IMG/VR virus record: IMGVR_UViG_3300021091_000015 | Reading direction: 5' to 3' (one strand) | From: a virus | Length of the DNA stretch: 64,000 nucleotides | In this document: piece after piece, positions 2 to 57,828 of the stretch | Layout: every line of letters begins with the position of its first letter | How positions within the stretch are numbered: position 1 is the first letter of the stretch | Made by a program: the position numbers and the translations under genes | The notes under the pieces: generated by a model | What the model saw: only the letters and a program-made list of their open reading frames with translations | Told to the model about the DNA's origin: nothing | Databases searched by the model: none

Positions 2-577
2 GATTCAAATTATAAATTTGGTAACTTCAGTTTAAACGAAAACTCAAAAAACAATCGTAATAAAAAGTCTATTAGATTGACTGAGTCGGACCTTATTAGA
101 ATTATTAAGAAGGTTATAATTGAACAACCCGAAAAAGATGACGTGTTATTAAGGTGGTTGGAGAATACCACGGTAATGCCATATATCGCACCCAATCCAT
201 ATAGCGGAGGTGTTTTAAAACTCGGAATTCAAATTAAAGGTAACGACGGAAACACGTTAGAATTATATGATATTAAAGGTAATCAAAAATTCAGCACACT
301 TATAAACCTTATTGAAAGGTTGGATATTACAACCGAGAACGGTAAAAGTGTTTATACCACGGATAAGGAATTTAGAGGTGAGACAGAAATAATTAATAAT
401 TCATATGTACATTATGGTTTATTTGGTCCCGATAGCGATTTGATGAGGAACTTAGATAAGTTTACCAACAAAACCAATAAGTTCATCGTTACAGTAACAC
501 CCCGTTTATCCGACGACCTCTTGAAAACAGGTTCCAAACTATTCAAAACAAAACCAAACATATTGATGGTTAACTAA
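2..577 (+). CDS. Hypothetical protein, 5'-truncated by the window edge; carries an internal KSIRLTESDLIRIIKKVIIEQ leader-like motif
   Basis: Frame is open from position 2 (DSNYKFGNFSLNENSKNNRNKKSIRLTES...) to the stop at 577, so the ORF-track TTG at 77 is probably internal. Confidence 0.7.
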   Translation, partial: DSNYKFGNFSLNENSKNNRNKKSIRLTESDLIRIIKKVIIEQPEKDDVLLRWLENTTVMPYIAPNPYSGGVLKLGIQIKGNDGNTLELYDIKGNQKFSTLINLIERLDITTENGKSVYTTDKEFRGETEIINNSYVHYGLFGPDSDLMRNLDKFTNKTNKFIVTVTPRLSDDLLKTGSKLFKTKPNILMVN

Positions 578-594
578 TATTTATTATAAAAAAC

Positions 595-915
595 ATGAAA
601 CCAAAAACATTAAACGAACAGGTAAGTAGAATTCGAGGTATAATGGGACTCAATGAATCAACAATACATGAAAGTTTTTGGAATAGTATTTTCGGTAAAC
701 CCGATGTAAAAGACGCTGCCAGTACTCAAATGAAATCTCAAGGTTATAGTCACATAGGTAGAGATGAAGAAAGAAAAGAAGAAAACTATCTTGTGTTTAA
801 TGGAGAAAAATTCTACCCAGAACAAATTGAATATGCTGACTACCAAGATTTGGGTGATTTACCAAGAGTAGAAGACGGTAAATTAATAATAGCAAACCCC
901 GCTTGGAATATGTAA
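595..915 (+). CDS. Hypothetical late protein with LNEQVSRIRGIMGLNE leader
   Basis: ORF; ATATTTAT at 577-584; A-rich start context. Confidence 0.7.
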   Translation: MKPKTLNEQVSRIRGIMGLNESTIHESFWNSIFGKPDVKDAASTQMKSQGYSHIGRDEERKEENYLVFNGEKFYPEQIEYADYQDLGDLPRVEDGKLIIANPAWNM

Positions 916-917
916 CT

Positions 918-1010
918 TTTATTAAATTAAATAATATTTATAATTAAAACGACTATGTACAAAAATTTTAGAATTTCAGAAGATGAGAAAAAACAAATTC
1001 TCGAAATGCA
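918..1010 (+). repeat. 93-bp direct repeat (late promoter + leader-coding cassette), copy 1
   Basis: Matches 4898-4990 with one mismatch (950 C vs 4930 T); partial third copy at 3643-3698. Confidence 0.95.
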
Positions 1011-1596
1011 CAGAAAACAAGGTTATAAAAGAGCAATAAACGAAGATGAGGAATCGATGAACCCCGAAAGTATGGGTTCACAAGATACATCAGTTGCAAG
1101 TCCCGAAAGTGGCAATCAAGGTATAAAACCTGAACTCGTTAAGGTTCTTAAAATATTAGCCGAAAGAAGTTTCCCAATAGTTAAAACTGCATTATCACCA
1201 GTTCCGTTCGTAAAAACTTCTGGAGGCGGTGGTTCTACGGTTTACTATGGTCAGTTCAACCCACAAAACACACCCGCCCTGCAAAAAAATTACAAGGTAC
1301 CTTATGAAGGTATTGGGCATGGAACAATATACTTTAGTATACAGCCAAACGGGTTTAATGCTGGTATTTCTGGTGAAGTCCTTCTTAACACTTTTAATTT
1401 CAAAGCCAGACTGACTGCCGATGAAATTAATAAATATACTCCAAATGACTTATATGGTCAAATCCTTGATGGTGTAAAAACACCAGGTGGGTTGATTAAT
1501 GCATTAAATAATCAATATATTGGTATACGAAATGGTGCAGGAAAATTAGAACTAATACAAAGAATGAAAGAGGATGGTTTTAAACAAGAAGGATAA
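955..1596 (+). CDS. Putative virion-internal protein, MYKNFRISEDEKKQILEMH leader family
   Basis: Leader shared with 3643 and 4935, unrelated C-terminus; ATATTTAT at 934-941. Confidence 0.75.
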   Translation: MYKNFRISEDEKKQILEMHRKQGYKRAINEDEESMNPESMGSQDTSVASPESGNQGIKPELVKVLKILAERSFPIVKTALSPVPFVKTSGGGGSTVYYGQFNPQNTPALQKNYKVPYEGIGHGTIYFSIQPNGFNAGISGEVLLNTFNFKARLTADEINKYTPNDLYGQILDGVKTPGGLINALNNQYIGIRNGAGKLELIQRMKEDGFKQEG

Positions 1597-1616
1597 CTTA
1601 CAGTAAAAACATAAAT

Positions 1617-1646
1617 AAAACCCCATCTTAAAAGGTGGGGTTTTTT
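1617..1646 (+). terminator. Intrinsic terminator
   Basis: AAAACCCCATC-TTAAAA-GGTGGGGTTTTTT hairpin with T tract. Confidence 0.85.
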
Positions 1647-1704
1647 ATTTGTGTTTGATAAAAATCAAAGTTTATTGATATTTTTCTCAAAGTTTTGTGA
1701 TATT

Positions 1705-1758: not shown

Positions 1759-1776
1759 TACCCACATAGATGAAAT

Positions 1777-3358: not shown

Positions 3359-3380
3359 TAATTTTTATATCATTAAATTT

Positions 3381-3407: not shown

Positions 3408-3642
3408 ATTTGTTCTTGGTGTAATGGTCGAAGAAAACCATTCCCCATCCCATAACAATTATCCCTAAACGATACACGGTAAAATCATAACATTTGTTTT
3501 TATATAATATATTGAAATTATTTTTATAAACAAAACCATTTTCGGGCACCGGAACCGGGAATTGAATAAACAATAATAAAAAGACCGTCTTTGAAAGATT
3601 CTTTTTTGTTTTACCTAATATTTATTAGAAAAGAAAATTATC

Positions 3643-4314
3643 ATGTACAAAAATTTTAGAATTTCAGAAGATGAGAAAAAAGAAATTCTTGAAATGCACC
3701 AATCTCATGGGTATAGTGTACCGAAAAAAATAGTTATTACCGAAACACAACTTAAAACCATCGTTAATAAAATTATGAGTGAACAAGCTCGTCAGGGTTA
3801 CAAACCTTCTCAGATGTCACAATATACATTTAAAGATGAAGCAAGTTTCAACGCATACAATAAGATTCCAAAATTTACCCCACAAGCAGCATGGGTTAAT
3901 ATGTATGGTGAAACCATTTCGGGTTATAATAAAGATACAAAAGCATTTAACGCAGCCCCTGAATTCATCGCAAACATTGTAATGAATGTGGCAATGTTCT
4001 CAGGTAATAAGAAGAACATTACCGCTTACGGCACATGGGGAACGTTCAAAACGTATTTAACAAAATACATTACCGAGATAAACAAAATCAGTCCCGCTAA
4101 AGTAAGTGGTCGTTACAGCCCCTTAACAATCGTGGAAACCATCGAGAAGGTTAAAGCTCAAGCATTAAAAGCAAGAGATGAAGCCGGAAAAGATTTGGGT
4201 GTAACCAAATGGCAGAAGTTCATTACCGATGTGGTTCAACCATATTGGTTATCGATGTATCAAGCCAACGTTATACCGCCAGCTCCAACAGCGGAACCCG
4301 TTAAAAAACCTTAA
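3643..4314 (+). CDS. Putative virion-internal protein with two tandem leaders (MYKNFRISEDEKK...; KKIVITETQLKTIVNKIMSEQ)
   Basis: ORF; ATATTTAT at 3618-3625. Confidence 0.75.
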   Translation: MYKNFRISEDEKKEILEMHQSHGYSVPKKIVITETQLKTIVNKIMSEQARQGYKPSQMSQYTFKDEASFNAYNKIPKFTPQAAWVNMYGETISGYNKDTKAFNAAPEFIANIVMNVAMFSGNKKNITAYGTWGTFKTYLTKYITEINKISPAKVSGRYSPLTIVETIEKVKAQALKARDEAGKDLGVTKWQKFITDVVQPYWLSMYQANVIPPAPTAEPVKKP

Positions 4315-4318
4315 AAAC

Positions 4319-4897: not shown

Positions 4898-4990
4898 TTT
4901 ATTAAATTAAATAATATTTATAATTAAAATGACTATGTACAAAAATTTTAGAATTTCAGAAGATGAGAAAAAACAAATTCTCGAAATGCA
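4898..4990 (+). repeat. 93-bp direct repeat, copy 2
   Basis: See 918-1010. Confidence 0.95.
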
Positions 4991-5477
4991 TAAACAAGCA
5001 ATTAAAGAATCTTTTGATAAAGATTTGGGTGAACAAGTACCACCTAAAACACCAAATACTCAAGCACCAACAGACGACTCAAAAAGAAGAGAAATATATA
5101 ACTCCGATTTAGCTAAATGGAAAACATATTTTAATTTCAGAGATAGAGATTTGATTGAAGCAAAAGATGCAATTGAATCAGTTCAAATCCCAAATGTTAA
5201 TGGATACATGATGACCAATTTTAAATCAGTGGCGACTGTAATGGAGAAAGCCGTACCTCAAGATTGGCAGAGAGCATCAGCAAGTAGTTATAAAACATTT
5301 GGTAATTATACTGGTATAAAACCAGGTTCAGCGTGGCCAACAATTATTAACTACGTAATCGATTTAAAGCTTAATACATTAGCGTTGATTCAACAAAAAT
5401 CGGGTATGCCAGTCACACCACCAAAAAATCCTGCACCGTATCAAGCGGCTTTAAAAAATTTAGGTATCCAAGCTTAA
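4935..5477 (+). CDS. Putative virion-internal protein, MYKNFRISEDEKKQILEMH leader family
   Basis: Leader identical to 955; start placed at 4935 by alignment to its paralogs. Confidence 0.75.
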   Translation: MYKNFRISEDEKKQILEMHKQAIKESFDKDLGEQVPPKTPNTQAPTDDSKRREIYNSDLAKWKTYFNFRDRDLIEAKDAIESVQIPNVNGYMMTNFKSVATVMEKAVPQDWQRASASSYKTFGNYTGIKPGSAWPTIINYVIDLKLNTLALIQQKSGMPVTPPKNPAPYQAALKNLGIQA

Positions 5478-6078: not shown

Positions 6079-7347
6079 ATGAAAAAAGTAATACGGTTAA
6101 CAGAATCGAATTTAGTAGATATTGTAAAAAAAGTCATAACGGAACAAAATTATTCAGAAGTACAAGGAACGACCGACCCAACGAGAATTGCAAAACTTTC
6201 GGTTTTGACTAATGCGGGTTTACCTGCTGACGAAGCTAATTTTAGAGGAAGATGGGTATTGGAACAACCTAACATATATAAAACTTTTGGTGAGGTTAAA
6301 AATTTGAGTCTATTTAAAAATCAGAACCCAAAATCGCCAGCTGATTCTGAAAATTATATTGAAGTAACGGTTCAAAGATTTTTACCGAATGTTTTAAACC
6401 CCGATAGAACGGTTAAAGTAAAAGGTGGTCCCGACTTATCTACACCACCAGTAGTGGAATCTTTAACAAATAACGGTACAAAAACATTTAATGTAAAATA
6501 TAAAGACCCCGACGGTAAACACATTTGGAGTCTTGTTCAAATTGTTGCATCGGGTAACGGTCTATTAGCGTTATCGAGAGCTTTAAATGAGTCAACGGGT
6601 ATGCCAAATAAAATAACAATTGGTATGTCACAAACACAAAGAACCAGTGGTGGATTTACTTATGACGCATCTAAGATTGCTAACACCACACCAACCTTAA
6701 ACTCATTGTCAAATATAACTACAGCCGCGATTATAAATAAAAGTGATTTTGATGCCTCAACGAAAAAATACGTTAGTGGTGATATGTCGGGTATTGGTAG
6801 ATATTTCGATAAAACAAACGAACAGTTGGCGGACATTATGGCAAAATCTTTGTACTTTTTTGATACTCAATTTATACCAAAAGAACAAATACAAACTTAT
6901 AGAACAAAAGTAGATGCTTCAGGTAAATTACTTTTACCAAACTACAATTCAGCACCGTTTTTAGAAATATTAAATAAACTACCAGTGTTCACCGATTTTC
7001 AATCTTTATTTGATGCAAATACCGTTCAACAAAGGTGGGATTACATTAGTGTTAATGTGACCAAATCATATTCAACATTTAATGATATGATAAAAAACGA
7101 AGTTGTTGAACAGTACAAAAAAAGATTGATTGCATTTTTTACTATGGTTTACAAAGATGCAAATCAAGCAACCCAACTTGTTAATTCAACACAATTTAGG
7201 TCTGCTAGTTTGACAATTGAACGTTCTTTTCAAAATGCGATTGTTGGTGTAAAATATACGAGTGTTGCGAATTTAGATAAAGCAACCGAAAAAAAGACAG
7301 GAGCATCATATGAAGTTGGTCAATCAAAACCATCTGTTCAGAAATAA
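6079..7347 (+). CDS. Putative virion-internal protein, ITES(Q/N)L leader family
   Basis: MKKVIRLTESNLVDIVKKVITEQ; ATATTTAT at 6054-6061. Confidence 0.75.
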   Translation: MKKVIRLTESNLVDIVKKVITEQNYSEVQGTTDPTRIAKLSVLTNAGLPADEANFRGRWVLEQPNIYKTFGEVKNLSLFKNQNPKSPADSENYIEVTVQRFLPNVLNPDRTVKVKGGPDLSTPPVVESLTNNGTKTFNVKYKDPDGKHIWSLVQIVASGNGLLALSRALNESTGMPNKITIGMSQTQRTSGGFTYDASKIANTTPTLNSLSNITTAAIINKSDFDASTKKYVSGDMSGIGRYFDKTNEQLADIMAKSLYFFDTQFIPKEQIQTYRTKVDASGKLLLPNYNSAPFLEILNKLPVFTDFQSLFDANTVQQRWDYISVNVTKSYSTFNDMIKNEVVEQYKKRLIAFFTMVYKDANQATQLVNSTQFRSASLTIERSFQNAIVGVKYTSVANLDKATEKKTGASYEVGQSKPSVQK

Positions 7348-8384: not shown

Positions 8385-8981
8385 ATGAAAAGGTTGATAT
8401 TGGTCTTATTTGTTTTTCCGGTTATAGGTTATTCACAAGTAAAAGTGAATGAAGATTCCGTAAATTATTATTTTGAACAAATTTTAAATGAATATCGAGG
8501 TAGTGTCGGTGGTGTATCAATTAATAAAGAATATAAACCATTTACCGACCATTGGGCCGCGTATATTTACAACTTAAAAAAGACAAAGGACAGTGCGAGT
8601 TATTATAGTGAATACTTGATTCACGGTAAGGGTAATGAAAGTCTTGAAAAACGAGCAGAAAGATATTCATCTTTAGGTATGTGGTTGTTCGAAAATGAAA
8701 TTGAGACGTTTAATTTAAACAAACCGATGTCTTTTGACAACTATAAATTTAATAACTTAAAAAATATAGATGATAGAAATTATTTAAAATATGTTGGTGG
8801 TAAATTTGGTGGTAACTACACAAATCGTGATATTGCGTGGTTTATCTTTTTAATGTGGAAAGACTCCCCAACACACAATGAGGTATTATTAAACCCAAAA
8901 GCGACAAAATTTTATATTACCACATATATTGTTGGTAATCAAATTACAGTTTCATATGTTGGACTTTCCGATATTTATTAA
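8385..8981 (+). CDS. Secreted CAP/SCP-domain protein
   Basis: Signal peptide; LNEYR, H, EN and WKDSPTHNEVLL CAP motifs; TTTG-N20-TAAGTTTG promoter ending at 8380. Confidence 0.65.
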   Translation: MKRLILVLFVFPVIGYSQVKVNEDSVNYYFEQILNEYRGSVGGVSINKEYKPFTDHWAAYIYNLKKTKDSASYYSEYLIHGKGNESLEKRAERYSSLGMWLFENEIETFNLNKPMSFDNYKFNNLKNIDDRNYLKYVGGKFGGNYTNRDIAWFIFLMWKDSPTHNEVLLNPKATKFYITTYIVGNQITVSYVGLSDIY

Positions 8982-8990: not shown

Positions 8991-9452
8991 ATGACTAAAA
9001 TTATATTAACAGAATCTCAATTAAGGAATTTAGCAAAAAATCTAAACGAAGATTCAATGGACAACAAATACAGAATGGAGTGTGAAGTTGATGTAAATCA
9101 CTTTGGTGCAAAATACAAAGGATTCGAAATTGATGATATTACAACCTCAAACATGACCTTAACTTTTGATATTGATATGGAGGGAAGAAGTTGGGGTATT
9201 AAAGATATTAGTGTTTATAACGTTCAAGGACCATCTGAAATTGAAGTAGAGATTGTTTATTATCCTGAGGACGGTGAAGATTCTGTAGACGAAACAATTA
9301 CTATCCCAATTAGTTGGGAAAATGTAGATATGCAAAAAGATGATGAAATGGGTTATATTGGTATCGGTAGAGACATTCAAATAGATTTAACCAATAATGA
9401 GAATGGTGAATTGGTATTTGACGGTATTATTGTGAATTATAATTCAATTTAA
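8991..9452 (+). CDS. Acidic protein with ILTESQL leader
   Basis: MTKIILTESQLRNLAKNLNE; ATATTTAT at 8971-8978. Confidence 0.7.
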   Translation: MTKIILTESQLRNLAKNLNEDSMDNKYRMECEVDVNHFGAKYKGFEIDDITTSNMTLTFDIDMEGRSWGIKDISVYNVQGPSEIEVEIVYYPEDGEDSVDETITIPISWENVDMQKDDEMGYIGIGRDIQIDLTNNENGELVFDGIIVNYNSI

Positions 9453-10448: not shown

Positions 10449-11318
10449 TTAGATAACTTGTGTGTTGAATTTTCTACATTCACTAAGAATCGTCATTGTG
10501 TCTTTTCCTTTAAAACTAAGATATCTTTCCACCATTTCACTGAACAATCCCTTTATACCACCCCAAACTGCTCCAGCACCTTTAGCGATACCACTTCCGA
10601 TACTTTTAGCAGTAGAACTAACCGCACTTGCTGCTCTGTTCGCCATGTTCGCAGCGCCTTGTTTAAGTTTGTTCCATTGTCCTGATGCCCAACTTTTGGC
10701 GTTTTCCCAAGCGACACCAACTTTATTTTGGATAGTAGCCCAACTTTGTTTTAACCAACCACCTAACATACTACCAAATTCTCTAACATTTGCGGCTGCA
10801 ACTAACACTTTACCCCATTGTTCGATACCAAATTGTTTAAACTGATTAAGTACCCATTTTAGAGTACTTAAAGTCGAGTCGGCCATGGAAGATAATTTTG
10901 CTTCAACCCACTTAGTGCCTTTATTCCAAGCGATTCCTGCAGATATTCCAAGGTTAATTGTCGCTTGGGATAGGGCGGTTGCTGCTCCAACGACAGCTTT
11001 ACCTGTTGCGGATAAAAATTTTAGTATAGCATTACCAACTACTTGACCTACTTTGAATAAACCTTTACCAATTAAAAACACAATAGCTGCGGTTGTGATT
11101 ATGGCGGTAAAAACTGTATTACCAATTTTTATAACAATTTGTTTTGCCCCTTGAACTACTGTATTTGCAGCACTTTTTATTGCTTGTTGTGCTTTTTGTC
11201 CAGCGGCATATCCACTTTGTTGTCCCTGTTGGAAACTTTGAGACATGGTTTGTTCTTCGATTATTTTACTAATCATAGTTTTTAATTGAGATTCGGTAAT
11301 ATGTACTACTCTTTTCAT
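10449..11318 (-). CDS. Ala/Gly-rich amphipathic helical protein with ITESQL leader (tape-measure/ejection-like composition)
   Basis: MKRVVHITESQLKTMISKIIEEQ; periodic Trp; hydrophobic segment; ATATTTAT motifs at 11331 and 11351 (minus). Confidence 0.65.
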   Translation of the reverse strand: MKRVVHITESQLKTMISKIIEEQTMSQSFQQGQQSGYAAGQKAQQAIKSAANTVVQGAKQIVIKIGNTVFTAIITTAAIVFLIGKGLFKVGQVVGNAILKFLSATGKAVVGAATALSQATINLGISAGIAWNKGTKWVEAKLSSMADSTLSTLKWVLNQFKQFGIEQWGKVLVAAANVREFGSMLGGWLKQSWATIQNKVGVAWENAKSWASGQWNKLKQGAANMANRAASAVSSTAKSIGSGIAKGAGAVWGGIKGLFSEMVERYLSFKGKDTMTILSECRKFNTQVI

Positions 11319-11373: not shown

Positions 11374-12201
11374 TCACTCTGATAATGATGAAACTATTTG
11401 TCCAACGTTTTTGAGTGACCCCCAATGACTTGATGAATTTGATGATGACGCGCCTTGAACTATTCCTTGACCTCTACCTGAAGTATTACCAACAAAAACA
11501 TTTTCAGCTGGAACCCCATTTGAAACCGCATTATTTACAATCATGGTTGTTTTTTGACTTGCACCATATGGTTCTATAATATATATGTTTTTAACATCTA
11601 CATTTGGGTCTTTTGAAATTGATGCGGATTTGGAAGCCCCAGCACTGAACATAAACACAGGTATATTAGGGTTTTGACTTAGAAAATCTTTGATTATTGA
11701 AATATCGGTATTGTAAGGAAATCCCTTAACATTCTTATCTTCACCAAAACCGCTTTTAAACAATCCAACCTGAGCATCAATTTTATAGTCACTGGGTCTA
11801 TAATCCAATCCACCAATTAAAACTGCATCATATTCAGAATTATCTTTTACACGAGAAGTATCTGTTTCACCATCCCATTTGATGTCGATTGAATCTATTG
11901 ATTCCGATAATTTAAACTGTATGGGAATTGATTTTATATCGGAAATACTGATATTTTTTAAAGACAGAGTACCATGAGATATTGGTGCAAATACACCTTG
12001 CATAAATAAAAACTGAAAGTAATAGAAAAGATAATTTTTGTCTATCATGTCAAGATATTCGTCTTTAATTTTGACACCAATATTTTCTTCATAAAATTCT
12101 TTTGAAGGTTTACCAACACTCTGTTCGGAACCTTTTCTTTGTAACCAAAAATCGGCTTCAGGAAAATTGGTTTTAAAAATACAAACGTCTCCTATATTCA
12201 T
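11374..12201 (-). CDS. Two-domain protein: HsdS/TRD-like N-terminus plus alpha/beta-hydrolase-like C-terminus
   Basis: DKNYLFYYFQ...GTLSLKNISISDIKSIPI resembles the type I R-M specificity domain tail; MFSAGA looks like a nucleophile elbow. Confidence 0.45.
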   Translation of the reverse strand: MNIGDVCIFKTNFPEADFWLQRKGSEQSVGKPSKEFYEENIGVKIKDEYLDMIDKNYLFYYFQFLFMQGVFAPISHGTLSLKNISISDIKSIPIQFKLSESIDSIDIKWDGETDTSRVKDNSEYDAVLIGGLDYRPSDYKIDAQVGLFKSGFGEDKNVKGFPYNTDISIIKDFLSQNPNIPVFMFSAGASKSASISKDPNVDVKNIYIIEPYGASQKTTMIVNNAVSNGVPAENVFVGNTSGRGQGIVQGASSSNSSSHWGSLKNVGQIVSSLSE

Positions 12202-13802
12202 ATTTCTGAAAGTCTATCGTTTAAATAAGTATTAAACTCACCATCATCAATATCGGGTGACCATCTATCATCAAGATAGAATCTTGGTTTTTCGTAATAT
12301 TCACCTAATAACTCATGAAAGACACAATGTGTATCGTCATCACATTTCTCAAAGAATTCATCCATCTCGTCTTCACCATAACCCATATTGTCAATAATGT
12401 TCTTTAAGTTAACTCTTATCGTTGCACCTCTATCGTTTAGGTTTAGCACATCTCCATAATCACTAAGTGCATTTCGTAATTGTTTCATTGCATAATCATA
12501 GTATGATGAATTAGCGGAATCGGAGTACGCTGAACCTAATGCATTTATAACTTCATAGTTATCGTCGTACTCATCTATTAATTCATCTATAGACATATTA
12601 GGGTCAAATTCTTCACCCGCCCTATCTCTAAGGTAATCAATAATTATTTTTTTATTATCGTCATCAGCTAAGTATTCTAATGCAGATTTCCAATCATCAT
12701 AATAACCGTCCGTTAATTCCCATATATCACCCGATAATAAAGTCTCAATAAAACCTATTTTCTTTGTACGACCGTTTGCATCTTTTGATTGTCTAATTGT
12801 CCAATCACCATCAACATAATACGGAACAGAATCGGCTTCAATATCCCAATCAAAAATCATATCAGGTTCTTGGAAATCTTGAGTGATACCCATCTTCTGT
12901 AGTTTTCTTTTTAATTTACGAGTGTTAAATATTTCAGGTTTGGATTGATATATCTGCATGATTTGTTCATCAGATAAATCGTTAATACTGAAATCATCAG
13001 AACTATTGTATTCACTACCAAAACCTTTTACGATATCGGTATTCAATATTAAATCAACAACGTAAGGATAAAATTCTGGTCTTGGTTTACTATTCTTGGG
13101 ACCTTTTAATTGGTAAACAATCCCATCATCATCACCAATTGCTGCGGTTAAATGACTTTTATTAATTGTGTAATTATCTTTAAGTTTTTTTGTTTCTCTT
13201 AGTGAAAAGATTGTGTTACTTGAGTTGGTTCTACCACAGTGACCCATACGATTACATTCTTCTCTTGAATCGTTTGTATTAAGGTCCACCCAATAAAACC
13301 CAACACCATCTTTATCTCTATAATCTTTAATTACGTCATTTTTTTCAACATAATTAATATCACCCCCTCCCGATGTTAGTTCTTGATGCCATTTTCTTGA
13401 TTCAGAATATAATTGGTTGAAATCTAAATTTTTATATTCGCCTAAATTTCCGTTCAAACCAATACGAATCCAGTCCATTATCGATACGATATTACTTCTC
13501 ATACCTCTAACACCGGCACTTTTATTTATTGCATCAATACCCATTTTTCTTCTATACTCGGGGTCTTTTCTAAAAGCTTCTCTAGCTAGTTCTTTTTCAT
13601 ATTCGGGTACCGCACTCATCATATATTCTAATCTTTGTTGTGCAAATACATCGATTAGTTTATTGGCTAATATGATTGATAACGGACCACCCAATTCTTC
13701 AATTTGGTCGGCATTTTCGGGACTCAAACCAAGTTTGTTTACCAATATATCTTTTCTATTGGCTTCAAGAATTAACTCTTCAATTAAATTTATTGTTTTC
13801 AT
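12198..13802 (-). CDS. PcfJ-like domain protein with LIEELILEA leader
   Basis: SREECNRMGHCG...IFSLR...QLKGPKN matches the PcfJ-like E...HC pattern. Confidence 0.55.
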   Translation of the reverse strand: MKTINLIEELILEANRKDILVNKLGLSPENADQIEELGGPLSIILANKLIDVFAQQRLEYMMSAVPEYEKELAREAFRKDPEYRRKMGIDAINKSAGVRGMRSNIVSIMDWIRIGLNGNLGEYKNLDFNQLYSESRKWHQELTSGGGDINYVEKNDVIKDYRDKDGVGFYWVDLNTNDSREECNRMGHCGRTNSSNTIFSLRETKKLKDNYTINKSHLTAAIGDDDGIVYQLKGPKNSKPRPEFYPYVVDLILNTDIVKGFGSEYNSSDDFSINDLSDEQIMQIYQSKPEIFNTRKLKRKLQKMGITQDFQEPDMIFDWDIEADSVPYYVDGDWTIRQSKDANGRTKKIGFIETLLSGDIWELTDGYYDDWKSALEYLADDDNKKIIIDYLRDRAGEEFDPNMSIDELIDEYDDNYEVINALGSAYSDSANSSYYDYAMKQLRNALSDYGDVLNLNDRGATIRVNLKNIIDNMGYGEDEMDEFFEKCDDDTHCVFHELLGEYYEKPRFYLDDRWSPDIDDGEFNTYLNDRLSEI

Positions 13803-15616
13803 CTAAATCTATTAAAGGAAACTATTGTCTCAAATAATTTATAGTTTGTGGCGTAAGATGCCAAATTGTCCACTTTTACCGGTCCGTCAAATCTTTCCCC
13901 CGTTTTTTTATTGTAGTAAGTAATATTAACACTTTCTTTCTCACAATCAATTTTTAATGATGGGATGTATATTGAAAACTCTTCGTTATCAATTGTTGTT
14001 TGACCTTTAAAAACATTTTGAATCGTGTTGTTTAATATAGTTCTAAGTTCACCACACCTTTTAACCCCTTCACTATTATCAATAATATTTCCAAAATAAT
14101 TCTCAATGAAAGTTTTCATTTCATCGTAGGTTACATTTTCTTGTTGATAATCCCAAATACCTTCGTAATCGTTATCTATGTCGTAATAACTAACATATTC
14201 GTTTAATACATCTTCCATGAGGATATTAGTACCATCGATTGTTGTATATCCTTTTTTAACTAAGAACAATAAAAAATAAGGTATTCTAACAATGACTTTA
14301 TCTTCTCTATATCTGTAATCAAAATCTATATATTTTTCAATAGCATCAACTTCAACTTGAACCGCACCCTCATAAAAACCATAATTTTTATTAACAAACA
14401 ATGATGAGTAATCATCCCACAAACTATCACTTTCAACAAAATTATCATATTGGTCGGCTTTGAATTGTTCGTAATTCAAATAACCAAGATTTGATTTTAT
14501 TTCACTTTCATTTTGTTTATAATATTCTTCTAAATAATCTTCAAGGGTTGATTTGATATAATCACTGTCTTCGTTATTCATCCTATCCCACAACATATCA
14601 TAACCTGATTGTGCTTCAGCTTGGTAATAAGTTAAAGTATCTTTTGTTGTTTGAAGACTACCGCCGTAGTTTGACTTAAATGATAATATAAAATTTTCTC
14701 TATCTATTTCAAAATCACTAATGTCATTATCGGTTATTAGCTCTCTTAATTTATCTTCATCTTTTTGAACAAAAGCCATAATCAAAGGATTTGATTGTGC
14801 TGTTTTTGAGATTATTTTGTTCACAAGAATACCAGCATCATCTTCGTCTAAAGCGTTCATTCTTGCAATTTGTTGTTTTACAATATCTTCGGGTTGGTCA
14901 TCGCTTATCAAAGAAGGAAAAAAGAAATTTTTAACATCGGGATTTTCATTTAAAAATTCAGTAACATTAATTCTTTTATCATCCCTGTCCATATATTGTT
15001 TTGATTCGAAATGGAACTGGTACTTATCATTTACGTCAGAATCGGATATTAGAATATATAATGGACCCTGAGTATGGTAACGATTGAAAAGACTACCTCT
15101 GTCTTTGTGTTTTGGATTTAATGATTTTGGTCCCCACGTTGTACACCACTCGGTATTAACACCTAAAGTACATGAAGCTTTTTCTGTAAAAGGTGTAAAT
15201 ATTGTGAATTTTCTACCCCTGAAAAGTTCTTTATATTCTTTTTCATTGAGCGCGGAAATAATTGAACCTAAATCTTTTGTGTCTCTTGTGTAATAGTTTT
15301 TAACTACATCGTAAAGGTCTGTCAGGGATTTGATTTTAGTAACATCTAAAGCAACATTGTGTTTATAGACATATTCTAAGTACTCTTTTGCTCTTGGTAA
15401 ATCTTCGAGTTTTAACCCTTTTTTTCTATAAAGATTAATTAATAGTTTAGCGTACTTACCAATTCTCTTAATTCCCGACTCAGCGGATAATGAGAGGGGG
15501 TCCGCCATTACGATTTGATTGAACTCATCTCTTGGCAGGTCTTTATAATATGAATTGTAAATTTCATCAGGGGTGGCCTCCAATATAATAGACTCAATAA
15601 GATTTAAAATTTTCAC
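13799..15616 (-). CDS. Large protein related to the PcfJ-like/WC-motif family, LIESIILEA leader
   Basis: ASCTLGVNTEWCTT...LYI...KYQFHF...MDRDD; GTG start; GTATTTAT upstream. Confidence 0.55.
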   Translation of the reverse strand: MKILNLIESIILEATPDEIYNSYYKDLPRDEFNQIVMADPLSLSAESGIKRIGKYAKLLINLYRKKGLKLEDLPRAKEYLEYVYKHNVALDVTKIKSLTDLYDVVKNYYTRDTKDLGSIISALNEKEYKELFRGRKFTIFTPFTEKASCTLGVNTEWCTTWGPKSLNPKHKDRGSLFNRYHTQGPLYILISDSDVNDKYQFHFESKQYMDRDDKRINVTEFLNENPDVKNFFFPSLISDDQPEDIVKQQIARMNALDEDDAGILVNKIISKTAQSNPLIMAFVQKDEDKLRELITDNDISDFEIDRENFILSFKSNYGGSLQTTKDTLTYYQAEAQSGYDMLWDRMNNEDSDYIKSTLEDYLEEYYKQNESEIKSNLGYLNYEQFKADQYDNFVESDSLWDDYSSLFVNKNYGFYEGAVQVEVDAIEKYIDFDYRYREDKVIVRIPYFLLFLVKKGYTTIDGTNILMEDVLNEYVSYYDIDNDYEGIWDYQQENVTYDEMKTFIENYFGNIIDNSEGVKRCGELRTILNNTIQNVFKGQTTIDNEEFSIYIPSLKIDCEKESVNITYYNKKTGERFDGPVKVDNLASYATNYKLFETIVSFNRFR

Positions 15617-16984: not shown

Positions 16985-17602
16985 TTAGAATTCTAAAAAT
17001 TTCTTTAAATCACCCATAACATCAAGTTTTTTTGGTTTAAATAACTTACCAAATATGTTTGGAAACTTTGATTTATGTTTAGAAATTATTTGAACCGCAA
17101 TACTACCTCTTTTCATACCTTCTTGAGATGAATTCGCCGGTCTCTCAAAATTTTTGGTAAAAACCGCAGCAGTGTCTTTAGTAGATAAATTCGGGTTAAA
17201 TAACGCTTGTTTAGTTGCAGAGTAATAAGGTATTGTTTTTATCTCATGCATTAAGTAATCTACTTGGGTTGAAATATCGTCAGGACTTTTACCTTTCTTT
17301 TTTGCAAAATCAATCAGACCTCGTTTTCTCGATTCTCTCCATTGTGCAATCCCAACAGAAGACCCTCCGGGAATATTTTTGTCTCCAACCGCTTTTGGTT
17401 GGAATCTACTTTCCGCATATAAATTACCCATCACCGCAGCAATACTTTTTTCAGGTAATCCGTGTTGTTTTAATCTATTATATATCAACTCAGCATTTGA
17501 ATTCCAACTTGATGAACTGTATTTAACATCTTCATTAATTAAATTCTCTTTTTCTAATTTTATTAATGACTTTAATTGTGATTCTGTAATTAATATTTTC
17601 AT
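16985..17602 (-). CDS. Phage tail-type lysozyme domain protein with ITESQL leader
   Basis: AAVMGNLYAES...GIAQW...QVDYLMHE...FERP are phage tail lysozyme motifs. Confidence 0.8.
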   Translation of the reverse strand: MKILITESQLKSLIKLEKENLINEDVKYSSSSWNSNAELIYNRLKQHGLPEKSIAAVMGNLYAESRFQPKAVGDKNIPGGSSVGIAQWRESRKRGLIDFAKKKGKSPDDISTQVDYLMHEIKTIPYYSATKQALFNPNLSTKDTAAVFTKNFERPANSSQEGMKRGSIAVQIISKHKSKFPNIFGKLFKPKKLDVMGDLKKFLEF

Positions 17603-17603
17603 A

Positions 17604-17957
17604 TTAATTTTCTTTGATTAATAACTCACCTAAAACTTCAATTTTACCAACTAATTCTTGAAATGGTATTTGTTTAATACCCATACCATCTTTGGTTGAT
17701 TCGTATAGTTTTTCTAACAATTTTTTATATTCTTTTTCCATCGCTTCTTTGGTTAGTTTACCTTCAGATGCTTTCTTGTAATATGGTAATTTAACAACAA
17801 AGTGATGATAAGTCAATAAAGCAAGTCCACCTTTCTCTTTAGCATTTTCACTAATTTTTTTCGCACCACCCATTCGGGTTTCTGCAAATTTTTCAAATTC
17901 GGTTAATTCCGATTCGATAAGTCTTTTTAATTGAGATTCTGATAATAGTATTTTCAT
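17604..17957 (-). CDS. Hypothetical protein with LSESQL leader
   Basis: MKILLSESQLKRLIESE. Confidence 0.7.
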   Translation of the reverse strand: MKILLSESQLKRLIESELTEFEKFAETRMGGAKKISENAKEKGGLALLTYHHFVVKLPYYKKASEGKLTKEAMEKEYKKLLEKLYESTKDGMGIKQIPFQELVGKIEVLGELLIKEN

Positions 17958-34243: not shown

Positions 34244-34260
34244 TTAAAGATAAAGAAAAA

Positions 34261-35046: not shown

Positions 35047-35047
35047 C

Positions 35048-35899: not shown

Positions 35900-35902
35900 A
35901 TT

Positions 35903-36748: not shown

Positions 36749-36757
36749 AAAAACATT

Positions 36758-40707: not shown

Positions 40708-40720
40708 AATAAATAAAGAG

Positions 40721-42430
40721 TTGGTGATGAATCAAGAGATTAATAAAAATTTAACTATTGTTACTGGTTTATGGAATATTGGTAGACCGGGGAGGGATTT
40801 TACACATTATATTGAACACTTCAAAATGTTCTTAGATATTCCACAAAATTTATTCATTTATATACCAGCGGAATATGAATATTTGGTTTGGGAAAAACGA
40901 AGTAGAGAGAATACATATGTACGAATAACCGAATTGGAAGATATAAAAAGATTATACGACCCTTTTTGGAATAAAACTCAAGAAATAAGGACATGTCCTG
41001 ATTGGTTAAATCAAGCTGGTTGGTTATCGGGTTCACCACAAGCAGTTTTGGAATACTATAACCCAATAGTTCAATCTAAAATGTTTATGTTAAATGACGC
41101 GTCAATTTGGAATCCATTTGACACTGAGTATTTCTTTTGGTTAGATGCGGGAATTACAAATACTGTGCCTCACACACATATAACTGAAAATAACATCTTA
41201 AATAAATTACCTGAATATGGTAATCCATTTTTATTTTTAAGTTATCCATATCAAGCCGAAAATGAAATTCATGGTTTCACTTTTACTGAAATGAATAAGA
41301 TTGCACGAACGAAGGTAGAATATGTTTGTCGAGGTGGTTTGTTCGGTGGACACAAACAACAAATACACGAAGCAAATGCAACATATTATTCAATCTTGAC
41401 TAACACATTGAATACGGGTTACATGGGAACAGAGGAAAGTGTCTTTACTTTGATGTCATACAATGAACCTCACTTGTACAAAAGATTTGAATTAGATGGT
41501 AATGGTTTGATTGTGAAATTTACCCAAGCGATTATTGATAAAAAAGTAGATATCGTTGCACCTAAAATAACCCAATCCCAAAAATTTATTAAGTACACAG
41601 ATAGGGATGTTGAAAAGGTTAAAACAAATTTATACGTCTTAACATTTAATTTCGCTGAGCAGGTTTTACACACCATTACATCAATGGAAAAAACGCCCGA
41701 TTGGTTAAATAGACCGCATTTAGTTTTACTCGATAATTCAACAACCCAAGAATCTCGAGATAAAAATAGGGAAATCGCTGAAAGTTTTAAATTTGAATAT
41801 GTTAGTTTAGGGGGTAACACCGGTATTTGTGGAGGTAGACAAGCGGCGTCAGAACATTTTCATAATTCTGATGCTGATTTTATGTTCTTTTTTGAAGACG
41901 ATATGACCGTTAATCCTCCTGAAATTGAAGGTCAATTTTGTAGAAACGGATTTAGAAAATACATCCCCAATCTTTACAATTTGGTTCACAGAATAATGTT
42001 AAAAGAACAATTTGATTTTCTTAAATTGTCATTTACTGAAGTATATTTTGATAACGACAAACAATGTTCTTGGTACAATGTGCCACAAACAATTAGAACA
42101 AGAGATTGGCCCAACTATGATAAATTACCTGTGACAGGTTTAGACCCAAATGTACCATTAACTAATTTTAAGAATATTAAAAGTATGGATGGATTATCTT
42201 ATATCGACGGTGAAATTTATTATGCAAATTGGCCAATGATTGTTAGTAAAGAAGGTAATTATAAAATGTTCATAGAAACAAAATGGGCACATCCATTTGA
42301 ACAAACGTGGATGTCATATATGTATCAATTAACAAAAGAAAATAAACTAAGACCTGCGGTATTATTAGCGTCACCGATTTGGCATGATAGAATTAAACAC
42401 TATCAACCCGACGAAAGAAGAGAAAATTAA
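40721..42430 (+). CDS. HtrL/WlaTC-like glycosyltransferase fused to a GT2-like domain
   Basis: TIVTGLWNIGR, WLDAG, GGLFGG, GTEE; C-terminal LDNS...N.G..GGR...FFEDD. Confidence 0.7.
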   Translation: MVMNQEINKNLTIVTGLWNIGRPGRDFTHYIEHFKMFLDIPQNLFIYIPAEYEYLVWEKRSRENTYVRITELEDIKRLYDPFWNKTQEIRTCPDWLNQAGWLSGSPQAVLEYYNPIVQSKMFMLNDASIWNPFDTEYFFWLDAGITNTVPHTHITENNILNKLPEYGNPFLFLSYPYQAENEIHGFTFTEMNKIARTKVEYVCRGGLFGGHKQQIHEANATYYSILTNTLNTGYMGTEESVFTLMSYNEPHLYKRFELDGNGLIVKFTQAIIDKKVDIVAPKITQSQKFIKYTDRDVEKVKTNLYVLTFNFAEQVLHTITSMEKTPDWLNRPHLVLLDNSTTQESRDKNREIAESFKFEYVSLGGNTGICGGRQAASEHFHNSDADFMFFFEDDMTVNPPEIEGQFCRNGFRKYIPNLYNLVHRIMLKEQFDFLKLSFTEVYFDNDKQCSWYNVPQTIRTRDWPNYDKLPVTGLDPNVPLTNFKNIKSMDGLSYIDGEIYYANWPMIVSKEGNYKMFIETKWAHPFEQTWMSYMYQLTKENKLRPAVLLASPIWHDRIKHYQPDERREN

Positions 42431-42435
42431 ATTTT

Positions 42436-43233
42436 ATGAAAATTGGAGTCATTGGTATTGGTGTTGTGGGTCAAGCAATTAAAGATGGGTTTGAATATAT
42501 TGGACACGAAGTATCTATTTACGATATAAAAATGCCTGAGACAAAAATAGAGGATGTTTTAGGTTGTGAAATCGTATACTTAACGGTTAGTACGATAATT
42601 GGTTTAAATGAAGAATGTGATTTATCCGCGGTAAGCAGTGTGGTGAGTCAATTAGATGAATTAAACTATAACGGTTTAATTGCAATAAAAAGCACGGTAG
42701 AACCTGGAACAACTAATAAATTAAAATTAGTTTATCCAAATTGTAGATTTGTTTTTGTACCGGAATTTTTAAAAGAAAGATGCGCATATAATGATTTTGT
42801 ATTTAATAATAACATACTTGTAGTTGGGACTGAAAATGATATCGATTATAACTTAATTGTTGAAAGTCATGGTAATTTACCTATTCATAGGGTAAAAATG
42901 AAAATTGTTGAAGCTGAATTAATGAAGTATTTTTCAAACACTTATAAAGCAACAAAAATTACATTTGCGAATTCATTCCACAAAGTTTGTCAACATTTTG
43001 GAGCTAATTATGGCGCGATTAAAGATGCGTTTTTATTTCACGGAGTGGGTGAAAGTCATTATTTGAACGTAAATGAAGAGTTTGGTGGATACGCGGGCCC
43101 TTGTTTACCTAAGGACACCAAAGCTATGAAAGTTCTTTGTAAAAAATATAATATCGATGTTGACATTTTCAAATTTATTGATGAGGAAAATGATAAATTT
43201 ATAAAAAAGGTCCCAAAAGGGATGAGAAAATAA
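42436..43233 (+). CDS. UDP-glucose/GDP-mannose dehydrogenase family (short form)
   Basis: GIGVVG, KSTVEPGT, PEFL, AE..KY..N...A.K..FAN, GYAGPCLPKD. Confidence 0.85.
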   Translation: MKIGVIGIGVVGQAIKDGFEYIGHEVSIYDIKMPETKIEDVLGCEIVYLTVSTIIGLNEECDLSAVSSVVSQLDELNYNGLIAIKSTVEPGTTNKLKLVYPNCRFVFVPEFLKERCAYNDFVFNNNILVVGTENDIDYNLIVESHGNLPIHRVKMKIVEAELMKYFSNTYKATKITFANSFHKVCQHFGANYGAIKDAFLFHGVGESHYLNVNEEFGGYAGPCLPKDTKAMKVLCKKYNIDVDIFKFIDEENDKFIKKVPKGMRK

Positions 43234-44166
43234 GTGAGAATTTTAGTCACAGGAGCCGCTGGATTTTTAGGTTCACATTTATGTGATTCTCTTTTAAGTA
43301 ATGGACATCAAGTTATTGGTGTTGATAATTTTTTCAGAGGTAAAAAATCAAATTTACCGATTCATGATAATTTTAGGTTTTACGAAATTGATTTAAGGAA
43401 TTTAAGTCAAACAAAGATTATGATGAATACCGAGTATCCTGAAATTGTTGTACACTATGCAGCAATCAACGGAACAAAGTATTTTTATGACATACCGTAC
43501 AAAGTTTGTAATGATAATATTCTTTTAACACAAAACATTTTAGAATCCTGTGGAAAGTCAGTTAGAAAAGTTGTTTATGCGTCGTCTTCTGAAGTATATG
43601 GTCCCGAACCTAAAGTCCCAACAAAAGAAACTGAATATATAATTTTAGATTCATTATCCGATAGAGATTCTTATGCGTCATCAAAAGCAATAGGTGAGTA
43701 TTTGGTTAGATTATGGGCTAGGGAAAATCAAAAAAATTATCTAATCGTTAGACCATTCAATACCTATGGACCAAGAATGGCAACAAACGGTTACGGACAA
43801 GTTATACCTGAATTTATAGAAAGAATTAAATCGAGCGAACAATTTTACTTGTTTGGTGATGGTAAACAAACTCGTTCTTTTTGTTATGTTACAAACCATA
43901 CCGACATAATGAATCAATTGATTGAAAATGTTAATGATAAAATTTTAAATATTGGTTTTGACGAAGAGGTGACAATAAATGAATTATCAAAAGTAATTCA
44001 CGAAATCATGGGTATTGAGTTCAACGTTATCTATAAAGAAGGTTGGAAGAACGATACTAAATGGAGAAAACCTGATTTAGATGAATTAAAAAATTGTACA
44101 AATTATAATAATTTTATACAATTAAAAGATGGTATTAAAAAAATGTTAGATTATCCGAATATTTAA
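43234..44166 (+). CDS. NAD-dependent epimerase / UDP-glucuronate decarboxylase-like
   Basis: TGAAGFLGSH, ASSSEVYG, YASSK, FNTYGPRM, GDGKQTRSFCY. Confidence 0.85.
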   Translation: MRILVTGAAGFLGSHLCDSLLSNGHQVIGVDNFFRGKKSNLPIHDNFRFYEIDLRNLSQTKIMMNTEYPEIVVHYAAINGTKYFYDIPYKVCNDNILLTQNILESCGKSVRKVVYASSSEVYGPEPKVPTKETEYIILDSLSDRDSYASSKAIGEYLVRLWARENQKNYLIVRPFNTYGPRMATNGYGQVIPEFIERIKSSEQFYLFGDGKQTRSFCYVTNHTDIMNQLIENVNDKILNIGFDEEVTINELSKVIHEIMGIEFNVIYKEGWKNDTKWRKPDLDELKNCTNYNNFIQLKDGIKKMLDYPNI

Positions 44167-45897: not shown

Positions 45898-46152
45898 ATG
45901 AAGATTATAATCTCAGAAAAACAATATAAAAAAATTGTAGATAGTGCTCAATTAGATGAGCAAGGTAATGACCCATCCGCGGCACAACCGTCCAGTGGTG
46001 TTGGTAGTTCAGGTAGCAAACAAGGTTATCCTGAGGTTGGAAAATGGGAAAGCGGTGTAACTAGAGGGCCTGGCAATCAAATTGGTGTGACCAAATGGTC
46101 GGACGTGGTTGGTTCAGTTTTAAAAAGAGGTCATGGAAATCCACTCAAATAA
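45898..46152 (+). CDS. Small late protein with ISEKQY leader
   Basis: MKIIISEKQYKKIV...LDEQ; repeated W-S-V-RG-GN. Confidence 0.65.
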   Translation: MKIIISEKQYKKIVDSAQLDEQGNDPSAAQPSSGVGSSGSKQGYPEVGKWESGVTRGPGNQIGVTKWSDVVGSVLKRGHGNPLK

Positions 46153-54326: not shown

Positions 54327-54354
54327 TAATATTTCAAAGAACTAATGGGTGAGT

Positions 54355-56427: not shown

Positions 56428-56524
56428 AATGTCGTATTAATGTTGTAATTTATTGTAATGGTACAAAGATATATAAACTTTTTGTAAAAACAAAGTTTTT
56501 TTTAAAAAAAATTAAAAAAAATTT

Positions 56525-56986
56525 TTAAATCCTCACCAAATGATTCGCGCTGTAGGTCATCATAGCCCCCGCGTGTTTGTATCTCACTTTATACCCCATA
56601 CCCTCAACCAAACCAACGGCTTGTCTTAAAACCTTATTTGATTTGTATTTTGGGTCAGGATTAAGGTCAATATCAATCCAAGTGACTTTTGGTAAACCAT
56701 TGTTTCTCAAGTGTTCAGCAACTTCAACCGCCTTCCACACTTCAGTCATTAGTCTACTTGACGTATCTTTTTCAAATGGTATTGTGTCTTTAGTACACAA
56801 TACGTGAGCACCCTTACCTTTTGTGTAAAGAGCAATAACCACCCCGTAAACTGTTTTAGAATTACTAAATGATTGTGAATCCGAACCAATCAATATTTCA
56901 ATATCGTTTTTATCCACCAAATAATCTTTGATGTAACCTATAACGTCGGTTATGAGTGTTCCGTGCAATGTTCTAAATTTTTTCAT
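56525..56986 (-). CDS. RNase H-like YkuK (DUF458) family protein
   Basis: IGSDSQ, RL..E...AVE.A, IDIDLNP....SN. Confidence 0.75.
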   Translation of the reverse strand: MKKFRTLHGTLITDVIGYIKDYLVDKNDIEILIGSDSQSFSNSKTVYGVVIALYTKGKGAHVLCTKDTIPFEKDTSSRLMTEVWKAVEVAEHLRNNGLPKVTWIDIDLNPDPKYKSNKVLRQAVGLVEGMGYKVRYKHAGAMMTYSANHLVRI

Positions 56987-57013
56987 ACCATTTTATAATA
57001 TATAAGTACTCCG

Positions 57014-57051
57014 CGGAAGGTGAGGGGCTCGAACCCTTGCGACTGTAACAC
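57014..57051 (-). pseudogene. 3' fragment of a tRNA (Ser-like acceptor)
   Basis: AAGGG-TTCGAGC-CCCT T-arm followed by CACCTTCC-G; no 5' half found. Confidence 0.55.
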
Positions 57052-57231
57052 CTTGTTATGTGTAGTAATTTTGTGGGGTTGATGTGGGTTGGTGAAAATT
57101 ATTACACATAACTACCAAGTAGTCTTTAATATAACCGATAATGTCGGTTATACGATATTCGCTTAAAAGGTAGACCCGGGCCCAACAAGCCGTTTTCGTA
57201 CGCAACGGAAGGGCCCTTTTTAAGGTCTACT

Positions 57232-57306
57232 TGGAGCGGGAAATGGGATTTGAACCCACGGCCCTCGCCTTGGCAAGGCGATGCTCTACCACTGAGCTAC
57301 TCCCGC
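57232..57306 (-). tRNA. tRNA-Gly(GCC), CCA encoded
   Basis: GCGGGAGTAGCTCAGTGGTAGAGC...CTTGCCAAG...GTTCAAATC...CCCGCTCCA. Confidence 0.95.
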
Positions 57307-57375
57307 TTGGAGTGGTCTTCCCATAACGATTTCCTTAATAGGTTTTGGAGTTAAGGGTACGACCACATGTTGATA

Positions 57376-57828
57376 TTATTTTTGATTTTTTTGTTGCCAC
57401 TCATAGGACACCGTATCTTCGGTAATTGGACCACCTTTTGCCCATGTTTTACATGTTCTTGCGGAGTGACATTTAAAGTGATGCATCCAACAGTACCCTA
57501 ATCTACCACTATCATCAGAAACCGAACCTGGCATACACTCATCCATTCTTGGTGATATATCAAATGCTACACAATTACCACATAGTGATTTTTTAGCAGC
57601 TTCAACAGTGGTGTTCCAATCAGATGCAACCATTTCCCAATAATCACCGGGTTCGTCAATATTAAGTGGACCATATTTTATATAATCCGCTTTTATTGAC
57701 TTGTCTCTATTATTGGTATTTAACTCTAAATCTTGAGTTGCTTTAGGACATTCCATTTCCGCTTCGGATAGGAGTCTTTTGTTTAATCTTTCGATAAGTT
57801 GTTTTTTCTTTTTTAATTCAATTCCCAT
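57376..57828 (-). CDS. Cys/His-rich late protein with LLSE leader
   Basis: CGNC, CWMHHFKCHSARTC; ATATTTAT at 57843 (minus). Confidence 0.65.
   Translation of the reverse strand: MGIELKKKKQLIERLNKRLLSEAEMECPKATQDLELNTNNRDKSIKADYIKYGPLNIDEPGDYWEMVASDWNTTVEAAKKSLCGNCVAFDISPRMDECMPGSVSDDSGRLGYCWMHHFKCHSARTCKTWAKGGPITEDTVSYEWQQKNQK

Follow-up and report, generated by a model that had tools for sequence, protein, structure and literature searches.

Recurrent N-terminal leaders on unrelated proteins of an uncultured T4-related phage: candidate capsid-targeting propeptides

Why should many proteins of one virus, with no other likeness between them, begin with the same short peptide? This question is raised by a 64,000-nucleotide stretch of viral DNA (IMG/VR virus record IMGVR_UViG_3300021091_000015; the window, in what follows, is this whole stretch), in which an initial annotation had noticed N-terminal leaders on about 25 proteins and had read them as tags for capsid targeting and cleavage of the kind known from phage T4. 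The recurrence of the leader is genuine and well outside what chance would give, and the tagged genes in the window total about 17. The reading that I favour, at a probability of roughly 0.58, is that these leaders are capsid-targeting propeptides which would work like the capsid targeting sequence (CTS) of T4, with a different and longer sequence.

A loose regular expression for the core of the family 1 leader matched 12 times in the six frames of the window; 10 of these matches lie within 8 codons of the start of an open reading frame (ORF), one is an internal copy at 3736, and one is spurious (40076, minus strand). When 34 non-redundant leaders were made into a profile, it detected 15 copies at E<0.01, spread over 14 ORFs; 13 of these copies are N-terminal. 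Ten of the N-terminal copies belong to family 1 (6079+, 8991+, 11318-, 17602-, 17957-, 18687-, 19193-, 19492-, 20447- and 45898+), and both regular expression and profile place it at the start of every ORF that had been named for this family; the other three belong to family 2 (955, 3643 and 4935), likewise as first described. The two copies that are not N-terminal, which had been placed at about 70 and within the gene at 3643, were found at 62-124, in an ORF running off the start of the window, and at 3724-3783. Two smaller leader types recur as well, type 3 (12198-13802 and 13799-15616) and type 4 (595). The cargo parts that follow the leaders show no pairwise BLAST similarity at E<=0.01, in agreement with the initial annotation.

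Two IMG/VR contigs are syntenic with the window, G001 (232 kb) and G002 (288 kb, 92% complete); positions 77-51180 of the window correspond to 239168-288260 of G002, and most proteins are 80-95% identical. When the N-terminal 24-mers of all 346 ORFs of G002 were compared all against all, the tag emerged as the only large N-terminal family. The profile matches in G002 (E<0.01) are confined to 238-284 kb, except for one borderline match beside the capsid gene, so that the tag is a feature of one 46-kb region and not genome-wide, as had been supposed.

The leaders were aligned on an invariant Glu, taken as position 0. A hydrophobic residue invariably occupies -4 and -2, T or S stands at -1, and +1 to +4 read S-Q/D-L-K; hydrophobic residues at +6/+7 and +10/+11 with K/R flanks make a helix that is amphipathic and net-basic. 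At +13, 53% of the leaders have Glu and 68% an acidic residue, and nothing is conserved past +13. The tag of about 20 residues is bipartite, with a core h-x-h-[TS]-E-S-[QD]-L, whose short start (h-x-h-[TS]-E) is beta-like, and an amphipathic helix that leads to [ILV]-x-E 13 residues past the first Glu. The initial annotation had seen nearly all leaders end in [IL]-x-E, and an [ILV]-x-E ending at +12 to +14 is present in 21 of the 34 leaders, vs. 2.4 +/- 1.4 in shuffled ones. [ILV]-x-E has a second peak at +8, and as the I/L-T/S-E of the core also fits the pattern, the tag holds up to three T4-type sites. As the alignments have it, the terminal [ILV]-x-E is a module boundary at a protease-type site, beyond which similarity collapses.

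The protein at 6079 illustrates this boundary. Among its 19 homologues (26-72% identity), M1, L7, E22 and Q23 never vary and E9 hardly does. In its AlphaFold2 model residues 1-22 have a predicted local distance difference test score (pLDDT) below 50, residues 9-23 form a free helix, and the confidently predicted fold begins at residue 25. The cargo fold of this 422-residue protein found no Foldseek match at E<=0.001, and VIA-align gave generic helical matches only (best Z 5.7).

The codons of family 1 at conserved residues vary freely (four Ser, three Thr, three Ile and four Leu codons) where the residues stay the same, so that selection acts on the peptide and not on the DNA. Family 2 is a recent DNA duplication that spans the promoter and the first 19 codons (918-1017, 3606-3705 and 4898-4997), with 96% and 75% identity over 100 nucleotides (nt).

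The leader types also replace one another on a single protein. The 534-residue protein at 12198-13802 has more than 1,100 homologues, and the type 3 leader predominates among the best 120; 17 have a 24-residue type 4-like leader, two a 27-residue family 1 leader (R-L-S-E-x-D-L), one a family 1 and then a type 3 leader, and several start in the manner of K-I-L-I-S-E-E-Q. All of these types meet the 534-residue body at the same h-h-E/A point, with E13 invariant and A14 nearly so; such a common joint would be expected if the leader types share one job and the junction is a processing site. In T4 gp23 and IPIII, Ala occupies the P1' position of the processing site. This family further shows an invariant R-M-G-H-C-G-R block around residues 185-191 and has the look of a core protein in a broad group of uncultured phages; its profile found no match among PDB sequences or in Pfam, and no PHROG match was found either.

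Conversely, the leader may be kept and the cargo exchanged: between the window and G002, the cargo was replaced behind a kept leader at 595, 955 and 17959. Copies also occur in tandem (3643), after some 20 additional residues (ORF 2-577), and at the C-terminal end of the small G002 ORF at 239809-240135. Among the best 150 database representatives of the tag described below, 32 have two or three copies, internal or C-terminal and sometimes at both ends. In the internal copies the M-K-K of an earlier start is often retained, which suggests that adjacent tagged genes have fused. If the protease were to cut at each copy, such multi-copy proteins would be polyproteins, which is speculation; a retained docking helix explains them equally well.

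The initial annotation had suggested that a prohead protease and a scaffold should be sought elsewhere in the genome. A protease and an ORF in the scaffold position were indeed present in the relatives; all head genes were read on these syntenic contigs and none on the window's own DNA. The head module of G002 follows the T4 order: terminase, portal (phrog_213), two small ORFs, protease, an acidic ORF and the capsid protein (Gp23, PF07068, 216 bits). The protease belongs to Peptidase_S77 (PF03420), with 79.7 bits in G002, 80.9 in G003 and 77.6 in G010. In G002 it is 32% identical to T4 gp21 (E 2e-21) and keeps the E-L-N-H-P and S-S-R-G-x-G-S blocks, which I take to surround the catalytic His and Ser of gp21. 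G003 and G010 also have the protease and a cluster of tagged genes together, and because the G010 protease is 92% identical to that of G002, the three are regarded as one phage group and not as independent lineages. The ORF between the protease and capsid genes of G002 encodes 417 residues and is extremely acidic; its assignment as scaffold follows from position only. In the capsid protein, I-N-E/S lies about 20 residues before a conserved R-R block, and the L-T-E/A cut of T4 about 35 residues before the matching block, a similar placement with an inexact alignment.

Tagged genes and head genes have an upstream motif in common. TATTTAT is found within 60 nt upstream of 12 of the 16 tagged window genes vs. 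13 of the 67 others (Fisher p 5e-5), in line with the shared upstream sequence noticed earlier, and the four tagged genes that lack it are operon-internal. The window holds 25 such sites, often as A-TATTTAT-A/T, at 1-38 nt upstream of start codons (for example at 577, 934, 6054, 8971, 28479 and 51195). In G002 the motif stands 4-45 nt upstream of the terminase, portal, protease and putative scaffold genes and of two tail-side genes (examples at 23710, 25599, 27312, 28894 and 29591), and the 140-240 kb region, with its small genes, has few copies. Lysis genes, too, have the motif upstream. In the sense-strand reading, TATTTAT is the reverse complement of most of the T4 late TATAAATA box, and it is probably the late promoter of this phage group.

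The spread of the tag beyond the window was assessed by an exhaustive HMMER search of a 33-column leader profile against 1.84 billion cluster representatives (library-wide E<=0.001), which yielded 1,114 protein clusters with the tag; the counts given here cover the best 150 of the 1,114 representatives. The tag lies at residue 1-6 in 143 of these 150, and 143 of 148 combine Glu at +13 with I or V at +11, a count that is not independent, as the profile favours this pattern. The 111 representatives of at least 80 residues fall into 91 unrelated cargo groups, and almost no Pfam domains were found among the 150. Ten representatives that were looked up are all metagenomic, Tara Oceans included, and some of their contigs are 130-400 kb long. 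A look-up in the ESM Atlas returned 'viruses' only, and a word-indexed search with residues 1-40 of one tagged protein returned only its orthologues. T4, RM378, Flavobacterium phage immuto and a 484-kb uncultured phage all lack the tag, and tblastn did not find it in a collection of cultured phages either. A literature search found the motif string in no paper; the sole paper that matched both 'capsid targeting sequence' and metagenomes deals with a different subject, and Petrov et al. 2010 make no mention of internal proteins or the CTS. A pattern scan of IMG/VR with more than 591 matches was rejected as evidence of spread, since about the same number is expected by chance according to a rough estimate.

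The precedent for such a tag is T4, whose internal proteins are diverse and share only a CTS of 10-19 residues that is removed by gp21 (PMC3012670, PMC9026906, PMC5694885). This peptide is sufficient to package foreign proteins (PMC9026906), and the accounts available of the original work place it on IPI, IPII, IPIII and Alt (Mullaney and Black 1996, via PMC9026906, PMC3012670). The leaders described here likewise are short N-terminal peptides on unrelated proteins, end in [IL]-x-E, precede diverse and fast-evolving cargo, and occur in a phage group with a gp21-type protease, a scaffold core (by position) and a gp23 capsid. They differ from the CTS in being longer (about 20-22 residues, vs. 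10 in IPII and IPIII) and two-part, in their number (about 17 tagged genes per 64 kb, vs. a handful in T4), in their presence in more than 1,100 metagenomic clusters, in having several interchangeable leader types per genome, and in their internal and C-terminal copies; their function is a proposed one. As far as the sequences tell, the relation of tag to CTS is thus one of function and architecture and not of detectable homology, so the tag sequence is new and the principle is known. In T-even phages, to follow the secondary accounts, internal-protein loci are polymorphic, with a CTS-like start kept and the body replaced (Repoila et al. 1994, via PMC3012670, PMC9026906). The exchanges at 595, 955 and 17959 and the promoter-plus-leader cassette of family 2 appear to be of the same kind; compared with those accounts, the set here is much larger, the tag is a different one, and the phage would be an uncultured jumbo phage of Bacteroidota type. 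In phiKZ-like giant phages (phiKZ gp175, SPN3US gp245; PMC5694885, PMC7411985) a gp21-related protease cuts many inner-head proteins after Glu; paralogues there may have identical N-termini, and propeptides have redundant cleavage sites. Their propeptides, however, mostly exceed 100 residues and use [SAG]-x-E, and they do not form one portable short tag. Encapsulin cargo-loading peptides offer an analogy only, as short terminal peptides that direct unrelated cargo into a shell of the HK97 fold; they are usually C-terminal, remain uncleaved and bind the shell protein itself.

If the leaders are capsid-targeting propeptides, the tagged genes would be late genes, expressed, like the head genes, from TATTTAT promoters, and the basic amphipathic helix would dock each protein on the very acidic scaffolding core during prohead assembly. 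The gp21-type protease would then cut after the terminal Glu, possibly also after earlier [IL]-x-E sites within the tag, and so free the cargo within the head, from which it would exit with the DNA at infection. As the tag is self-contained, cargo could be exchanged by recombination and tagged genes could fuse without loss of function. Docking, cleavage, packaging and ejection are read from what was observed, that is, from the tag, its architecture, its portability and the machinery in relatives.

Several observations support this reading: the position of the tag at residue 1-8 of ORFs, the selection at the protein level and the module boundary at a protease-type site; the gp21-type protease, portal, scaffold-position ORF and Gp23 in T4 gene order; the TATTTAT motif common to tagged and head genes; the interchange of leaders and the swapping of cargo; and the T4 internal proteins as a precedent. 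In addition, one cargo is a virion-type peptidoglycan hydrolase, the lysozyme at 16985-17602. It is distinct from the protein at 20541-21368, which lies behind a TATTTAT motif, combines PG_binding_1 with a chitinase-like glycoside hydrolase 19 (GH19) domain, and is by its domains the likely endolysin.

A number of findings weigh against it. Even at E<=10 the leader profile has no match in T4, and the tag is missing from the cultured T4-like Bacteroidota phages checked (immuto and RM378). Not one of the recognisable head proteins bears it, and the head module was seen in relatives and not on the window's own DNA. In the scaffold-position ORF [IL]-x-E is weakly enriched (12 vs. 6.9, p 0.03). The internal or C-terminal copies in 32 of the best 150 representatives, together with the G002 ORF that ends in one, are not predicted by an N-terminal propeptide, and large size and strong acidity (net charge -33 and -41) set the type 3 cargoes apart from T4 internal proteins. 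Packaging, cleavage and late timing of the tagged proteins are all things that I infer. The T4-like interpretation first put forward is thus borne out in part by the protease, the capsid protein, the junction and the exchange of leaders, and has to be modified in that the set is smaller and more clustered, with extra copies in about one fifth of the best matches.

Alternatively, the tag may be an uncleaved docking or oligomerisation helix that ties the proteins to a common partner or to each other, as in an inner body, a tail or baseplate accessory structure or another late assembly. The hydrophobic residues at +3, +6, +7, +10 and +11 form a heptad-like amphipathic pattern, internal and C-terminal copies, sometimes at both ends, would suit a peptide that binds irrespective of position, and the lysozyme cargo comes from a family described as tail lysozyme. 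However, a binding helix leaves unexplained why Glu with [ILV] two residues before should sit at the exact end of the module (the 143 of 148 above), and binding alone accounts neither for the invariant E-Q and E-A junctions nor for the co-occurrence of a gp21-type protease that cuts at such sites. Cleavage and docking are not exclusive, and the T4 CTS does both; I consider this explanation in its uncleaved form unlikely.

The tag could also serve in the infected cell and not in the virion, as a recognition signal for a chaperone or unfoldase or as a signal for timed degradation or localisation. The window does encode a ClpB/ClpA-like double AAA+ ATPase (62103-63998, cut by the window end; AAA_2 236 bits, ClpB_D2-small), and nearly all cargoes are without an assigned function. 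The analysis found nothing that connects the ATPase with the tag, however. Being charged and amphipathic, the tag does not resemble a Sec or Tat signal; the genes that carry it have the same promoter motif as head genes, and the junction fits T4-type protease sites. I therefore hold a role outside the virion to be improbable.

That the shared starts are a functionless by-product of a recombination or expression cassette of promoter plus first codons, as the near-identical family 2 duplicates might suggest, is very improbable and already largely refuted for family 1, where synonymous sites vary freely and residues are kept, where the leader is conserved in homologues of 26-30% identity, and where 1,114 clusters have the tag, which in the best 150 almost always sits at residue 1.

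Under capsid targeting, a broader proposal may be made tentatively, and I would sooner doubt than assert it: that these tags are a modular cargo-loading code of uncultured T4-related jumbo phages, in which interchangeable peptides of about 20 residues load hundreds of unrelated proteins into capsids for delivery to Bacteroidota-type hosts, and in which internal copies mark polyproteins cut by the head protease into separate cargoes. Phage proteins carried in the head are the first to act during infection, whether as anti-restriction factors, host-takeover enzymes or wall hydrolases, and are almost impossible to recognise by sequence, so that a tag marking them would define candidates among thousands of 'hypothetical' metagenomic proteins. 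If true, metagenomes alone would suffice to list the packaged and injected proteome, a likely reservoir of counter-defence and takeover proteins, and the CTS principle, familiar from a handful of proteins in a single model phage, would extend to a much larger modular system. Portable and defined tags are also what T4 engineers have used to package foreign proteins.

The tagged genes of the window are as follows, from its start. ORF 2-577 (plus strand, open at its 5' end) has about 20 residues before its family 1 copy at 62-124 (19.2 bits, ending in I-I-E before Q), and the gene starts beyond the window. The type 4 leader covers the first 21 residues of a 106-residue protein (595-915, plus), ends in L-N-E and has TATTTAT 10 nt upstream; it is 70% identical to the leader of G002 240132, where the cargo is a different one (9-12% identity), and as it also occurs at G002 181119 it recurs there on two different proteins. 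The three family 2 genes are all on the plus strand: 955-1596 (213 residues; leader in the first 17, ending in I-L-E; 23.1 bits), 3643-4314 (223 residues; family 2 at residues 1-17 and family 1 at 28-47, that is, 3724-3783; 21.7 and 14.3 bits) and 4935-5477 (180 residues; 22.1 bits).

Family 1 is found on the plus strand at 6079-7347 (422 residues; leader at 1-22, ending in I-T-E before Q), at 8991-9452 (153 residues, acidic; leader at 1-20, ending in L-N-E; 18.6 bits) and at 45898-46152 (84 residues with a G/S/P-rich linker; leader at 1-21, ending in L-D-E; 23.5 bits). The remaining genes are on the minus strand. At 10449-11318 a basic, Q/G/A-rich protein of 289 residues has its leader at 1-22, ending in I-E-E (21.6 bits), and no orthologue in G002. 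The two type 3 genes encode very acidic proteins whose likeness is limited to the first 14 residues and whose leaders end in I-L-E before A: 12198-13802 (534 residues, leader in the first 13) and 13799-15616 (605 residues, GTG start, TATTTAT 18 nt upstream).

The gene at 16985-17602 (205 residues) joins a family 1 leader (residues 1-24, ending in I-N-E; 19.6 bits) to a phage tail-lysozyme domain, the lysozyme cargo named earlier. Its match to PF18013 (Phage_lysozyme2) reaches 119.1 bits against a gathering cut-off of 28.2 and is full-length (residues 36-175, profile positions 2-139 of 140); homologues in cultured phages have no leader and align only from residue 24-38 on, and G002 has no orthologue. 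The other cargo assignments fared less well: a WYL-like match fell below the Pfam cut-off, a PcfJ-like cargo was not recovered, and no transmembrane stretches were seen in the cargo parts.

Five family 1 genes follow. The leader of 17604-17957 (117 residues) occupies 1-20 and ends in L-T-E (24.7 bits), and that of 17959-18687 (242 residues) occupies 1-20 and ends in I-E-E (23.8 bits); of the latter protein the first 60 residues are conserved in G002 and the remainder is replaced. At 18765-19193 (142 residues) a variant has R for T/S before Glu (16.8 bits), and 19235-19492 (85 residues, GTG start) has a leader ending in L-K-E (22.1 bits) and a G002 orthologue that begins at the same residue. 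The leader of 19872-20447 (191 residues; leader at 1-22, ending in I-T-E before S; 27.5 bits) is invariant in 11 orthologues; the AlphaFold2 model of this protein was too poor to use (pLDDT 42.8).

By itself [IL]-x-E is too common to count, being present in 38 of the 83 N-termini of the window. Of the looser leaders proposed earlier, those at 13802/15616 and 595 are the type 3 and type 4 leaders given above, and those at 16304, 22947, 28492, 49616 and 57828 were rejected because the excess of [IL]-x-E vanishes once families 1 and 2 are removed (25 of 70 N-termini vs. 18 of 75 internal segments, p 0.15, not significant). These five have no paralogous N-terminus in the window, the G002 orthologues of the first four join no N-terminal group, and 57828 has no orthologue in G002.

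Several ORFs interleaved with the tagged genes (4346-4795-, 5523-5942-, 7379-7816-, 8385-8981+, 24987-25589+ and 45223-45813-) have hydrophobic, signal-peptide-like N-termini and are for this reason read as exported; none of the six has a Pfam match.

The window as a whole has a G+C content of 32% and four tRNAs, and megablast found no match between 23 kb of it and cultured phages at the DNA level. Exact 43-mers taken from it likewise had no match in IMG/VR or in the JGI metagenomes. Further genes are RNA-ligase-like, RNase H-like, a phosphoesterase and the ClpB-like ATPase already mentioned. In G002, a single open frame at 107949-124367 encodes 5,472 residues, the first 35 or so of which resemble the start of a 308-residue ORF at G002 52194. 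A 15-kb cluster of sugar-nucleotide and glycosyltransferase genes lies at 29-44 kb of the window, and its sugar-biosynthesis island (32580-44166, vs. 268-282 kb of G002) differs between these close relatives. An aminotransferase, three epimerase/dehydratase-like genes, a UDP-glucose dehydrogenase-like gene and others of the island have no G002 counterpart, and the two glycosyltransferases that flank it are 83-90% identical to those of G002; from this comparison of sequences, the island is a variable glycan cassette.

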